Positions 18,001-24,000 of a stretch of DNA of 64,000 bases are shown here, in pieces. Position 1 is the stretch's first letter, and each line of letters starts with the position of its first letter. A program made the position numbers. The stretch is from a bacterium (GTDB taxonomy: Bacteria > UBA8248 > JACPRG01 > G963555815). The DNA lies in NCBI GenBank assembly GCA_965261595.1, contig CBDHDG010000006.1:1504001-1568000 (forward strand). The letters are read 5' to 3'.

Positions 18001-21000
18001 CGAGCTTGACCTGGGCGAGGGTGCCCGTTCCGACGAGGCGCCATTCATGGGCGGTCGTGGTGCGGAACAAGGCAACGGCCGGGACCAGGACGACGGTCAG
18101 GGCGATGCCCAAAAGCCCCCAGCGGACCAGCTGGCCCCACATATGGACGTCGTGGGCCAGGGTCTGGCCGCCCCTGAGCGTTGCGTTGCCGAACATCATC
18201 GGGTCCTCCCGTTCAAGGTTGTGTGGATAGCGGCGGTCTTGGCGCCGTTCCGTTGCAATGCGCCGGGCGGGAGGCCGAGGAAGGCGGGGTCAAGGGCGCG
18301 GGCCGCCGGGACCGGAGAGGCTGGCGCCCGAGACGCCTTGAACCGCAACCCCGGAGGAACGACCCGTGTCCAATCCATCCGACCCATCCAACGGCTGGCG
18401 CGCCCGCGCCTTCGTCCTCGGCGGGCTCGCCCTCGCCCTCGCCGTCACCGTCTTTTCCGTGGCCACCGGGACCAATGTCCGCTTCCTGGGGGGCATCTGG
18501 TTCTGGGCAATGATCTGGACCGTCCTTGCCGCCCTCGCGTGCGCCCTGTGGCGGGGGCTCCGCCACGGGGAGTGGTCCGCCTTCGGCCGCTGCGAGCTCC
18601 CGGAAGAGGGCGGCGATCGGTTCGACTGGTCGACCAAAACCGGCCGCGACGCCTGGCTCCGCGATTTCGAGGACCGGGATCTGAACGACGACGAGCACCT
18701 TCGCGGTTATGGCCCGAGCACCCGGTCCCCGTAGAAGGGACCGGCGCGGGCGCTCGTCCAGGGGCATGTCGAGTGGGCGCCGGGCGTTGTCATGGGAAGG
18801 AAGATAAGGGGAAGGTTCATGCTTGCCCACAGGTATCGATAGTGCATGACCTACACTTGGTTGACATTCCCGAGCACATCCGCGATGGGATGCGCGGGGG
18901 TGCGGCAAAAAACCGGAGACACGCCAAGTGGAAGGGATAAGGATGAGTTCAGAGGGAAAGACGGACGGAGGAGAGGCGATCAGGCGCGACCCGGTCCGGC
19001 TCAGGCTGCTCTCCGCCAACCTGGACTACGCCCCCTATACGTGCCTTGTCCAGGACGTACACATCCTCGGCAAGGTGTTGTGGGTGGTCAGAAAGGTGTG
19101 GCCAATTAACGGCCTTAAGGCCGTGAAGACGTATTCGCCATTACATAGGGATTGACGGGGAACCCTTGCGTCTGCGTCGGGTGTAAAGAAGCAGGGCTGA
19201 TCCGGTCGTTTCGGAATCGGGATGGACTGAAACCTTCACGAAAGGGATCTATAATATGAATGGTTCAGACGATACAAAAGAACATTCGGGTCATGCCCGG
19301 GCAATAGAAACGGAGCGAGAAAACGGCGGAGGAGCGGGTATTTCGCCAACCAACTCGTGGTCGAGCCCGCGATGGAGGCCTTAGAACGCAGAGAATGTCC
19401 CGCCCGCATGCGCGCTTTGGGGTGGAGGCGCGCTCGCGCGTGGAGGTGGGGCCCTTGGCCTCCGCTCCCGAGAGGCTCGAACCCGGCGTATCGGCAGCGC
19501 TTCGCTGCGCCGTCCAGACGCCCGAGTTCTGGCCGCTAGCGCACCCGAGCCGCTTCGTACGACCGAGTCCGGCGCTCGAGAAGTTCGTGGCGACGCACGA
19601 CATCGGGTTGGGGGACGTCCCGGTAGAGATCAAGAGAAGCTGTCATCGCGATCTTTGGAGCGCGATCAAGAAACAGTTGATCGCCAAGTACACCCGGGAC
19701 CCTGGTACGGACGGTTATGGAATCTATCTGGTATTCTGGTTCAGAGAGACGGAACGTTGCCGGCCAACGCCGGGGGAGGGAGTGCCGCCGAAGTGCGCCA
19801 CCGACATCGAAAAGCGTCTGCGCGACGCGCTCTCCGCCGCCGAGAGACTCAAGATTTCGATTTGCGTAATTGATGTCTCTGAGCCTTCAAGATGAGTCAT
19901 CATCGGGCTGGATCCCCGGGAGGCGGCGCGGGCGGAAAAGCGCCTGTTTCTCCTATCCCGACTTGGGCGGCGAACCGGAGGAGAGCCGCCACGTCGCCCT
20001 CTCTCCCTATTTATTCGACGCGGGCGGCCTCGCCGATCCGCATCTGACGGTGCGGGAAACCTCCAGACCGATGAATGGTTTACCGAAACTGATTATCGGG
20101 TCCAAACCCATTGATGGCGGCCACTACATATTTACGGCCCAGGAACGGGACGCTTTTCTCACCCTGGAGCCGGACGCCGCCCCTTTCCTGCGCCCCTATA
20201 TCGGTGCGCGCGAATATCTGCAAGGCGGCGGACGATGGATTCTCGCCCTGCACGACGCATCACCTGCGACGCTGGCGCGGTTGCCGTGCGTGCGGGAGCG
20301 CATCGCCGCCGTCCGCGTCTATCGGCAAGCCAGCAAAAGCGCGCCAACGCAAAAACTGGCGGAAACGCCGACGCTCTATCACGTGAACGTCATCCCAACC
20401 GCGCCGTTTTTGGTCGTCCCGGAGGTAAGCTCCGAGCGGCGAGAGTATGCGCCTATCGGCTGACTGGAGCCGCCCGTTATCCCGAGCAATCTTGTCCGTG
20501 TCCTCGAAAACACCAGCCTCGTCGATTTTACGCTGCTCACCTCAGCCATGCACATGGCGTGGCTGCGCTACATCGGCGGGCGGCTCAAGAGCGACTACCG
20601 CTATTCTATCGGCCTCGTCTACAACACTTATCCTCTGCCGCCGGGGGAGGGCGACCTCTCGAAACTGGAACCACTCGCCCAGGCCGTCCTGGACGCCCGC
20701 GCCGCGCATCCCGAAGCAACGCCGGCCGATCTCTACGACCCCGATCTCATGCCGCCAGATCTCCCCCGCGCCCACCAAGCCCTCGACCGCGCCGTGGATC
20801 GCCTCTATCGCCGGGGTGGCTTCGCTTCGGGAATTATGTAGGAAAGTGCCGAAGTCCCCTTAATCGTAGTTGACATCCTCGAATTTATGGATTACTTTTC
20901 AAACAGGTAATCTTACCAATGAGGGGTGGAAATGGAAGCCATTATAGACCTAGCCGGACTTGGCATAACCTTCGGAATGTGGATGACCGGGCTTTGGGGC

Positions 21001-24000
21001 CTCGTCCGCATGGACCGAAAGGCCGAGAAGCGTTACAAATATTGGGACGAGCAGAGCGAGAAATCCGACATCATCATGGAGGGACTCAGGGAAGCAATTG
21101 AGGAACTGAAATCCGTCAGAGAAAAAACCGCTTGACAATTTCGGCACTCTGTTGTATATTCTCCGCATGATAAGGAGGATATACATGAGGAAGAAAGGCC
21201 CAGGAAAATCCTACCGCAAGGGCATCCCGCTTACCGAGATTTTGAAACGATTCCCGGATGACAAAATGACGGAAGTCTGGTTCACCAAGAAACGTTGGCC
21301 GAATGGCATTGCTTGCCCGCGTTGCGGCTCATTGAATGTCAAGACCGGGGCGGCACACAAGACCATGCCGTATCGTTGCCGGGAAAAGGAATGCGCCAAG
21401 CGGTTCAGCCCGAAGACCGGAACGGTCATGGAAGGCTCGAAGATCGGGATGCAGAAGTGGATGATTGCTACGTATCTCCTTTCTACCAGCCTCAAGAGCG
21501 TGTCCAGCATGAAGCTGAGCCGCGACCTCGGAATCAATCAGAGAAGCGCGTGGTTCATGGCCCATCGGCTCCGCGCGGCCATATCCGTGAAGGACCGCCC
21601 GTATTCCGGCCCGGTGGAAGTGGATGAATCTTACTTCGGCGGGAAATTCCGCAATGCCACGAAAGCCAAGAAGAAGACACTCAAGGGCAGGGGGCCGGTC
21701 GGCAAGACGGCGGTCGTGGGCGCAAAGGACCGGGCAACGAATCGCGTCTCGGCCAAGGTTGTCCCCAATACGAGCAAAGAGACCCTCCACGGATTCGTTG
21801 ACGAACACGCTGACCCGTTGGCCTCCGTGTACACGGACGAGGCGACCGTCTACGAAAGCCTCCCCTTCAATCATTCCAGCGTGAAGCACTCTATCTCGGA
21901 ATACGTGAAGGGCGACGTGCACACCAACGGGATCGAATCTCTTTGGGCGACGATGAAACGCGCTCACAAGGGCACGTTTCACAAAATCTCGCCAAAGCAT
22001 CTGGACCGTTACGTCCAGGAATTCGCCGGACGGCACAACCTCCGGGAACGTGACACCATCGACATGATGACCGGAATTCTGTCCGGGATGGACGGAAAGC
22101 GGCTCAAGTACCGCGAACTCATTGCCGACAATGGACTGAGTTCGATGGCCCGGAGTGCGTGAAGATGCGTTCGACTGCTGAGCATGAAGCAACGGCGAGA
22201 GAGAAGCGTCGGATGGTGCGGCGAGGAAAACCAACAAACGATCTGATCTTCAGTGCATGCGTCGGGGGAAATGAACACGTATTCCCTCAAATCCTGTCGA
22301 TATATGTCCCCGGGGGAAGCGTTATCGCAGATGTAACGTATGGCGAAGGTGTGTTCTGGCGCAATGTTCCGGATGACCGATATATCCTGCTCAATACGGA
22401 CATTCAAACAGGAACAGACTGTCGGGATTTACCGCATAGCGACGGCGAGATTGATTGCGTGGTTCTAGATCCGCCCTACATGCATACGCCCGGCGGAAGT
22501 GCTCATACGGCCCATTCTGCCTTCGAGCGACATTACCGCAACAACGGGACCGGTAACAAGACGACAAAGAAGTACCACGAAGCGGTTCTGTCCCTGTACG
22601 AAGATGCAGGCATGGAAGCGCGTCGGGTGCTTCGAGACCGTGGAGTCCTGATCGTGAAGTGCCAGGACGAGGTGTGCTCAAATAGACAACGCTTCACCCA
22701 CGTTGAAATCATGCAGGCATACGAACGGATTGGATTCATTGCCGAGGATCTATTTGTTGTTGTGCGTAAAAACCGACCGGGGGTGAGCCGAGCCATTCAG
22801 CAGGTGCATGCCAGAAAAAATCACTCGTACTTTCTTGTATTCTGGAAGCGCGGCGAGGGGCGCGGGGTGTGGGAACGGCTGAATGAATGCCGTTGAATTA
22901 TTGGTGGCGATCATTCGTGAACATGCGCCGGAAGACATTTGGCAAGACTCGCCGCTGATCGGCTATCGGATGCTCGGAAATACTAATCGGGGGGAGATTG
23001 GAGAGGAATTCGTCCGGCGATACTTGTCAGCACACGATATAAAGATAGGCAACGGTGGCCGAACGTCAAGGACAGATCTTCGGATTGAGGATGCGCGATT
23101 GGAAGTGAAGACCGCCTCCCTCGGGGCGAACGGCACGTTCCAATTCAATCATGTCCGGCTTGATCGTCAGTATGATCATCTTTTGTGTTTGGGGATTTGT
23201 CCGAAGAAGGTTGTGTTCAACACGTGGAGAAAAGGCGAGATCGCGGAGAATCGGGCCGGGAGACTGGTTCGGATGGCGGAAGGCCAGGCAGTCACGTACA
23301 AGCTCACAAAGAGGCTGTCCGAAATGGAAGCAATCGATGGTTTTCCTGGGCGTGTTCGAAGCTGGGAGACCCAATGAAAAGAGACAGAATCATGACAGAA
23401 AAACCGAAACCTGTAGAGGTGGAAATGGTCGATTCGTTCTACCAGCCCTCAAAGGCAGAGTTGGAGGAGGATCTGCGCGTTGACGTTGGAGTTAATGAAG
23501 CGGTCGATGCTTTGGCTCAGAGTGTGACGATTAGACATATTCCACGCCCGAAGAAGGATTGACCCAACAGTTAATAATTTCCGGAACCTATTGAGATTAG
23601 CTATTGACTCCGCTTCGGCACTTTGCTACATAATTCCCTTCGCTTCGGAGCGCGAGCGCGTGGAGCATCTGTTCGCCCTGTACGAGAAAATGCGCGCGCC
23701 CCTGGAGGCAGGGGTGAGGAAAAAACCGAGACGGCGGAGGAGCAGGTGAAGGTGAACGATCTCCATGTAGCCGCATTGTTGTACCGCGTCGAGCATGGCG
23801 AATCGGTTTCTTACAAAGAGGCTGAGCCGCTCGTTCGCCATGAGCCCGCCTTTCGTCTGGAAGTCAAAGACAATCAAGCCCGTTTTGAATTGAAAGACCA
23901 TTACGCGGCGGAAGAGGATGCGCTGGAAGCAATTGAAGACTACATTTGCGCTTGGGAGTTCGAAGCTCGCCTTGAGAATGGGCCGGACTCATTTCGATTG

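Follow-up and report, generated by a model that had tools for sequence, protein, structure and literature searches.

How a complete type II restriction-modification (R-M) pair came to lie between the ends of an insertion sequence, and whether such elements are carriers of anti-phage genes, are the questions raised by a 2,810-bp IS1595-family element found at 20829–23638 of the window, the whole 64,000-nucleotide stretch of bacterial DNA analysed here. The element has 26-bp inverted ends and an 8-bp duplication, and its target is a decayed MmeI-like gene. The reading considered probable here is that it is an IS1595 transporter insertion sequence organised as a small operon whose cargo slot is exchangeable, that this cargo is kept for restriction and/or addiction, and that transposase-free cassettes of the same genome are moved in trans. 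The features of the locus are the following.

19870–20828, forward strand: 5' part of the target gene, the remnant of a decayed MmeI-like (type IIL) R-M gene whose frame is broken by a stop near 20461
20821–20828, forward strand: left copy of the 8-bp target duplication (TTCGCTTC, present at both flanks)
20829–20854, forward strand: left terminal inverted repeat (TIR), 26 bp, the TIR pair being 96% complementary
20932–21135, forward strand: upstream passenger, a 67-aa ORF with a single hydrophobic stretch and no significant family match
21132–21160, forward strand: sigma-70-type promoter, TTGACA-17-TATATT, 11 of 12 consensus bases
21185–22162, forward strand: IS1595-family DDE transposase, 325 aa (Pfam PF12762, 1e-39; NCBIfam NF033547, 184 bits, cut-off 75)
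22159–22896, forward strand: N4-C/N6-A DNA methyltransferase, 243–245 aa (Pfam N6_N4_Mtase, 3e-8; DPPY motif), whose GTG start overlaps the transposase stop
22883–23377, forward strand: type II restriction endonuclease-like protein, 164 aa (PADLOC REase_II, 3e-14), cognate partner of the methylase
23374–23562, forward strand: small conserved "YQP" gene, 56–62 aa, a clade-wide transposase partner predicted to bind the transposase helix-turn-helix (HTH) region
23613–23638, reverse strand: right TIR, 26 bp, 96% complementary to the left one
23639–23646, forward strand: right copy of the target duplication (TTCGCTTC)
23647–23730, forward strand: 3' end of the MmeI-like target gene, whose frame runs on across the empty site

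The TIRs of about 25 bp and the 8-bp target duplication given for the IS1595 family in the accessible part of its description (PMC5704250) are both seen here, and the transposase, with its Zn-ribbon, HTH and DDE regions, fits the family model. The methylase and nuclease genes (22159–23377), which are unrelated to transposition, lie within the ends, as in a transporter IS (tIS). The tIS concept is reportedly due to Siguier, Gagnevin and Chandler in 2009, and IS1595 subgroups include methylase passengers. The passenger-carrying element with a complete R-M pair described at this place in the genome-wide survey's note was recovered with its ends, its duplication and both genes. In short-read contigs from two studies, the cargo and the right junction are present with zero differences. 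Joints that skip the element occur in contigs of other runs; they have short sides, are probably homologues from other organisms and were not taken for an empty allele in this strain. The one RNA run listed contained 9% of the sequence words.

The R-M genes are separate and adjacent, with both frames intact, and they behave as a cognate pair, a methylase homologue adjoining the nuclease homologue in 79 of 80 loci (1202 nuclease homologues were found). Residues D65, E74 and K76 of the nuclease are invariant and are presumed to fit the PD-(D/E)xK motif; sequence searches found no solved structural relative of either protein. Homologues of the pair lie within mapped IS1595 ends in 5 of the 80 loci, from 3 genomes, and in two further loci a transposase lies directly upstream. 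A single clade of IS-borne R-M copies was rejected (p-AU 0.0004; 26 of 77 rows, quick tree).

The transposase, cargo and small partner genes follow one another in the same direction, stop codons overlapping start codons, and the promoter spacer contains at 21140–21150 an inverted copy of the inner TIR, matching in 10 of 11 bases, which is likely the operator of the transposase. Such a copy is found within the transposase promoter of 35 of 53 relatives in the locus clade versus 1 in the control. An ORF begins at the transposase stop in 32 of 64 elements, with a 1- or 4-base overlap in 21 of the 32. Judged from sequence, the promoter and the overlapping genes suggest an operon that represses itself and whose cargo slot can be exchanged. 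A further candidate signal, TTGAC in the right TIR as driver of inward-read cargo, found no support (10/24 with it vs 9/26 without).

The small partner is a regular part of this frame, as a YQP gene of 55–65 residues is present in 36 of the 53 elements of the locus clade, and its label changes seven times on the transposase tree. The predicted complex of transposase and YQP scores 0.81, against 0.01 for the best of three controls, with a partner pLDDT of at least 73 and at least 70% of contacts shared between runs; of 157 solved complexes, 116 attain the mark set for this score, as do 2 of 215 mismatched pairs. The YQP product is accordingly modelled as binding the HTH region, a prediction for which sequence searches found no solved relative of either chain. 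Conservation at the predicted interface does not exceed that of neighbouring residues (0.73 vs 0.72), and transposase and YQP identities correlate weakly (rho 0.24). In a codon test, three YQP pairs were usable, the other two of five being misregistered; two gave a third-position excess (15/19 and 23/36) and the third gave none (16/41). Fold searches with YQP returned no match, and its Atlas matches were unnamed clusters only; the first profile made for a second small-ORF family matched nothing. The peptide is no absolute brake, because elements that carry YQP number as many as six in one genome.

In the proposed circuit, YQP bound to the HTH region would either help or restrain the transposase, which would use the inverted TIR copy to repress the promoter that the genes share; a newly arrived element would thus express the methylase first and then be damped. 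Relatives occur in several copies at differing targets, an indirect sign of transposition. Within the genome the transposases are mostly divergent, 97 of 118 pairs being 25–40% identical and 4 above 70%, in agreement with the survey.

What such elements carry elsewhere was followed in an external set of 183 loci, whose ends were mapped in 135, 114 of them with exact 8-bp duplications; the 48 without mapped ends were left out. The mapped loci collapse to 114 distinct elements with a median of 2.7 kb, of which 111 hold at least 400 bp beyond the transposase; the claim that IS1595 elements carry passengers inside mapped ends is borne out. R-M parts were recognised in 41 of the 114 (38 by PADLOC, one by Pfam and two by tblastn), a fraction that is not that of the whole IS1595 family because the elements were picked by likeness to the transposases of this genome (the best 80 of at least 441, the best 80 of at least 529, and 24 others). 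The carriers, namely 27 of the 53 elements in the locus clade, 8 of the 50 from the second set and 6 of the 11 relatives, span at least seven phyla. In the viral contigs, four transposase loci were found and ends were mapped in none.

R-M genes are the commonest recognisable cargo of these relatives, in which the frame is kept and the cargo swapped, the R-M label changing 29 times on the transposase tree. Among ORFs picked by a crude score, with 24 elements under-covered, R-M genes make up 49 of 274 in cargo and 3 of 150 in the flanks (Fisher p 2.6e-7); with weak matches counted, the flanks have 6 of 150 (p 1.7e-5). The description of these elements as anti-phage carriers therefore holds for R-M, which is strongly enriched in the cargo across phyla. 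Beyond R-M it is not supported: 219 of the 274 external cargo ORFs had no PADLOC match at 1e-5, and many cargo genes are broken or belong to no recognisable family. Target duplications are 76–79% A+T against a background of 37–40%, and such targeting would steer the elements into horizontally acquired defence islands, where R-M genes may be picked up repeatedly and then kept because they restrict foreign DNA and/or are addictive.

The cargo families that the survey had listed for this genome were all recovered in Pfam and PADLOC scans, with two reservations: the Mrr match of the methylase-Mrr fusion in three copies is weak (E 0.002, below the Pfam cut-off), and the PDC-S42 gene has a frameshift. 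A candidate of 6.9 kb, ending in CGGAATTTCCCAT, was dropped, as no IS1595 transposase lies inside. P63C, which the survey had counted as a defence passenger, follows the transposase tree with 2 changes for 12 carriers, which rules it out as variable defence cargo; by this pattern it belongs as a fixed partner to a single transposase clade, and none of the P63C papers listed presents it as a defence gene. A bolder and only tentative extension would make all cargo-carrying IS1595 elements two-gene transposons, each clade with its own partner (a YQP-type peptide, a divergently read left-end peptide or P63C). The peptide would bind the transposase HTH and, together with the promoter operator, run an autoregulated slot; that slot would be a main short-range vehicle of R-M genes, while the cargo that lacks a defence match, roughly 80%, would form a pool of undescribed defence genes.

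Type II R-M systems are established as addictive, and it may be asked whether R-M and toxin-antitoxin-like cargo simply stabilises the element or its island, phage defence being a side effect. The recognisable cargo, which consists mostly of methylase-nuclease pairs and fusions together with TA-type domains (PIN, DUF433, SocA), would fit. However, in about 18 R-M carriers the methylase is fused to HNH, Mrr or T5orf172 in a single gene, an arrangement not established to cause post-segregational killing, and addiction buys little because an IS is rarely lost cleanly, which makes this explanation rather unlikely.

Neutral hitch-hiking, in which elements that have inserted into A+T-rich islands take up whichever genes they meet, is improbable too. 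If R-M genes were common in such islands of these hosts, the cargo would be silent on selection for defence, and the strong A+T bias, the position of the locus element among type I, MmeI-like and C5-methylase genes, the many frameshifted or interrupted cargo genes of this genome and the 75 of 80 loci of the locus R-M pair without mapped IS ends all suit that view. It accounts poorly for R-M ORFs being about nine times fewer in the flanks of the same insertions than in the cargo, for cargo starts fitted to the transposase stop, and for one R-M-carrying element in three intact copies at different targets. The transporter reading, with cargo kept for restriction and/or addiction, is the one preferred.

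The two amplified cassettes were confirmed at 11 copies (907–908 bp) and 10 copies (958 or 1315 bp). Both forms have IS ends, target duplications and coding cargo, and no IS1595 profile match inside, as in mobile insertion cassettes (MICs). Their ends, reported as the same as those of the locus element, are of IS1595 type but differ from the latter and resemble those found on other elements in this genome. Of the 11 copies, 6 lie between exact 8-bp duplications, and of the 10 copies, 9 do; in the remaining five 908-bp copies, recombination between copies seems to have exchanged the flanks. That the 958-bp form is the 1315-bp form less one paralogue is true of six of seven copies, which map as the longer form minus positions 666–1022 (one aligned base by base), while in the seventh a different 106-bp segment replaces the first gene. 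A 420-codon antisense frame of the 1315-bp cassette was set aside as the gene in favour of the two sense ORFs, in view of their 39% paralogy with conservative changes.

As the survey had stated, the cassette genes belong to no known family, none matching PADLOC, Pfam or NCBIfam models. A search with the sense ORFs found no homologues of the 1315-bp paralogues, and a metagenome scan gave no confirmed match to the 908-bp cassette protein. For the 204-aa product of the 907-bp copy, a low-confidence model shows two helices and an Ig-like sandwich. The 908-bp gene is frameshifted in 10 of 11 copies and spread mostly in that form; with genes of no family and these frameshifts, the defence-carrier claim fails for the amplified cassettes. 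They are probably non-autonomous derivatives mobilised in trans, whose amplification would be mostly selfish spread and not selection for defence. The most amplified autonomous element, 900 bp in 16 full copies, has no cargo.

That the amplified cassettes are instead host-regulated defence units, with NrdR bound at the paired boxes of their ends and expression set free once dNTP pools drop in infection, is quite improbable. In its favour, the boxes match the core at the ribonucleotide reductase promoter of this genome, which has an nrdR gene, and the same pairs recur in a second genus, in cassettes whose cargo is different. A single NrdR-like box lies at position 27–32 in 10 of 228 external ends versus 2.0 in shuffles, and PDC-M24, a PDC-S42-like gene and a methylase-Mrr fusion are found in further cassettes of this family. 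Against it, the pairs are spaced 35–36, 38 or 26 bp against 31–32 bp in six host pairs, outside the pattern of an NrdR regulon, whose boxes lie about three helical turns apart (PMC9110341, accessible part). Moreover, 6 of the 10 external boxes come from three near relatives, and the amplified genes have no family, one having a frameshift in all but one of its 11 copies.

Passenger-carrying IS1595 elements and R-M units with such ends are already in print (2009, 2010). The YQP partner gene, the operator copy in the transposase promoter and the cargo starts overlapping the transposase stop appear to be new: no conserved small partner gene, promoter-spacer operator or coupled cargo slot was found described in the literature searched. 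A transposase-binding partner would add a layer of control to an IS family taken as single-gene, and the exact ends make IS1595 cargo easy to mine for new defence genes.

Defence hotspots are known in P4 satellites, Tn7-like transposons and pipolins, where a fixed mobile frame holds a variable, defence-rich slot. Cargo-carrying IS1595 elements share this layout, although they are far smaller (1.3–7 kb), use a single DDE transposase and have R-M as the sole clearly enriched defence class. Closer in kind are the tIS of the family itself, MTnSag1/tISSag10 and tISCpe8 (PMC5704250, accessible part), which have the same IS1595 DDE transposase, TIRs of about 25 bp, 8-bp duplication and passengers inside the ends, but carry lincosamide resistance where the locus carries R-M. 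In the accessible text of Furuta, Abe and Kobayashi (2010; PMC2853133), a type IIG unit of Neisseria (26-bp repeats, decayed COG3677 transposase) and a Xanthomonas R-M unit (65-bp repeats, no transposase) likewise place R-M genes between inverted repeats with 8-bp duplications. There, two cases with empty sites leave the mover open; here, the vector of such units is named as intact IS1595 transposases, and its frequency is given (41 of 114 elements, at least seven phyla). The cassettes, finally, resemble MICs (PMC3129680, citing MIC231; accessible part) in having no transposase, genes within IS ends, target duplications and movement in trans, and they differ in their IS1595-type ends with paired NrdR-like boxes, their 10–11 near-identical copies and their cargo of no known family.

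The IS1595-family element that carries the R-M pair lies inside a defence island, which adjoins the genes of the relaxase TrwC and the coupling protein TrwB. The island contains a type I hsdM spread over two frames that overlap, an hsdS, a gene for a HATPase protein and one for a C5 methylase.

20829-23638: IS1595 element, with 26-bp inverted repeats at both ends, flanked by an exact duplication of TTCGCTTC
13105-18199 (-) and 24872-31357 (+): TrwC relaxase/TrwB coupling protein and adjoining defence island, with the IS inside the island

The genes of the element are all on one strand, in the order 67-aa ORF, transposase, methylase, nuclease, 56-62-aa ORF; from the transposase onwards they are linked by stop-to-start overlaps. 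A promoter, TTGACA-17-TATATT, is located between the 67-aa ORF and the transposase. The target is an MmeI-like gene, the frame of which reads on once the element is removed, and which was already broken by a stop near 20461. Cargo and right junction are found without differences in contigs from two studies (one of which may be the source sample), and the element is therefore not an assembly artefact. The element described in the genome-wide survey's note is real.

For the nuclease, 1202 homologues were found, and a methylase homologue adjoins it in 79 of 80 genomic loci; judged by sequence, the methylase and nuclease of the window are a cognate pair. Five of the 80 loci, from three genomes, lie within mapped IS1595 ends, with transposases and TIRs that differ from those of the window, and in two more a transposase is found directly upstream. 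On the tree of the R-M pair, which is unrooted, 5 changes are required to account for the six IS-borne versions, and their grouping as one clade is rejected (p-AU 0.0004; 26 of 77 rows); the pair would thus have been captured by IS more than once, or released from IS.

Related elements were collected from 183 loci (163 from transposase scans and 20 from relatives), of which 135 had ends that could be mapped and 114 had exact 8-bp duplications. The non-redundant set contains 114 distinct elements, 99 with a duplication and 15 with TIRs only, and R-M parts are present in 41 of them. R-M ORFs account for 49/274 in the cargo vs 3/150 in the flanks (p 2.6e-7), the control being 150 flanking ORFs drawn at random out of 488, and the sample being biased to the transposase clades of the source genome, with kin that are not independent. 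The earlier description of IS1595 elements as carriers of anti-phage genes holds for R-M, but is overstated for P63C and for the amplified cassettes. The R-M cargo consists of methylase-nuclease fusions in about 18 cases, 14 of them with HNH, of methylase-nuclease pairs in seven and of type IIG/I-like genes in six. Other PADLOC matches are limited to six cargo ORFs, four of which are weak or generic HTH. Of the 225 non-R-M cargo ORFs, the 150 longest were compared with Pfam: 99 are without a match, and nested transposases and P63C account for 10 each. ClpP-like peptidase genes are repeatedly found, either within the cargo or next to an IS1595-type end (L111:7133-7705, L184:7763-8374, L026:192-776). 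Large ORFs of about 280-290 aa, immediately after or before the transposase in loci L158, L167, L172 and L180, match nothing in Pfam or PADLOC, show no mutual likeness at 1e-6 and are candidates for new defence genes.

The source genome, G000, has 45 IS1595 loci, including 16 full copies of a cargo-free 900-bp element, and well over a dozen other elements carry passengers. At C5:509754-514527, an element with a DUF433-PIN pair as cargo has a second IS1595 element (510825-513112) nested in it. Among 53 hand-picked cargo ORFs scanned, out of 378 listed, frames are intact for the window R-M pair, GmrSD-HNH, two PIN modules, P63C, a PDC-S42-like gene and a methylase-Mrr-like fusion, which is present in three copies with mapped element ends. 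Broken cargo comprises a D12 methylase with a SacI-like nuclease in two pieces, methylase-HNH, PDC-S42, PDC-M24, a methylase-Mrr cassette and a type I/IIG-like gene. Another IS (1.3-1.4 kb, about 99% identity) has burst to about 200 places in this genome and disrupts many IS1595 cargo genes. Roughly half of the elements have membrane or unknown proteins as sole cargo. Internal end-like motifs in several elements suggest that cargo is acquired through nested insertion, with deletion afterwards.

The elements have in common a frame, a variable slot enriched in R-M genes and a target bias, the target sites being 76-79% A+T. An ORF begins at the transposase stop in 32 of 64 elements, 21 by overlap, and the promoter spacer carries an inverted copy of the element's own inner TIR in 35/53 (control 1), through which the element may repress itself. 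YQP, a small conserved gene near the right end (23374-23562 in the window), is present in 36/53 elements of the window's clade, 0/50 of a second set and 4/11 from relatives, with one further match located outside an element; as a rule it stops 32-72 bp short of the right end. Diverged forms occur in eleven more elements, and 10 of the 11 best outside matches in relatives adjoin an IS1595 end or transposase. In a second clade, fourteen elements carry another small gene, which lies at the left end and is read outwards; P63C marks a third transposase clade, where the search for a small ORF gave no convincing candidate.

The predicted fold of YQP is strand-helix-helix-strand (pLDDT 88), for which fold searches found no structural match. 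Its predicted binding site on the transposase is residues 79-135, with a score of 0.81 (best control 0.01), the score mark being reached by 116/157 solved complexes and 2/215 mismatched pairs; runs share at least 70% of contacts, with partner pLDDT of at least 73. Searches yielded no solved relative of the transposase or of YQP, which lowers the chance that the score reflects memorised structures. The predicted interface shows no extra conservation relative to its surroundings, which counts against binding. YQP could have a regulatory or structural role. Cargo would be captured inside A+T-rich defence islands and kept through restriction or addiction.

Copy mapping confirms the reported 11 and 10 copies of the two amplified transposase-free cassettes. 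The gene of the 908-bp cassette encodes 204 aa both in the one copy that is 907 bp long and in outside homologues. In the remaining ten copies an additional base brings the stop forward to 160 aa, and the cassette has therefore spread mostly in broken form, a pattern that matches either selfish spread or a cost of the gene at high copy number. The 204-aa product is predicted, in a low-confidence model (pLDDT 63), as two helices and an Ig-like sandwich. The two paralogues of the 1315-bp cassette are 39% identical, and no homologues were found among 1.8 billion representatives searched. Its sense genes are preceded by hairpin-plus-start units, and a 420-codon antisense frame (L020:30-1289 (-)), in register with three sense ORFs, is left open by the 357-bp deletion. 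The same end design is seen in at least six more transposase-free cassettes, and also in cassettes of another genome, G006. A 1205-bp transposase-free cassette (L021:122-1086; G000:C7:1038945-1040149), in about four copies or fragments, has two genes that by eye we take to resemble HicB and HicA, with no Pfam or NCBIfam match. Target duplications have been exchanged between cassette/IS copies (G000:C7:905605 with C6:1667271; C7:8746, C7:29393, C3:129361; C7:1166279 with C7:1225718), a sign that recombination between copies has rearranged the genome. Paired boxes at the cassette ends look NrdR-like, with a spacing of 35-36, 38 or 26 bp, vs 31-32 bp in six host pairs. Of these host pairs, one each lies at a ribonucleotide reductase, at an smc-like gene and at a site whose motifs resemble DnaA boxes; the other three lie at unassigned sites.

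G000:C6:124854-124894, C6:1127362-1127403, C7:799303-799344, C2:98759, C6:1638043, C7:790281: host NrdR-like box pairs, 31-32 bp

COG3677 presumably belongs to the IS1595 family. Transporter ISs and MICs have already been defined (PMC3129680, PMC5704250), and Furuta in 2010 described R-M units that have 8-bp duplications and inverted repeats of 26 or 65 bp, one of them with a decayed COG3677 transposase, the mover being left open (PMC2853133). The window element is of a known kind. The literature searched yielded neither a census of the R-M cargo of IS1595 nor a small partner gene, either of which the 2009 paper of Siguier, Gagnevin and Chandler and ISfinder may mention; the new points, which merit bench work, are the enrichment measured for R-M genes and the partner predicted for the transposase.
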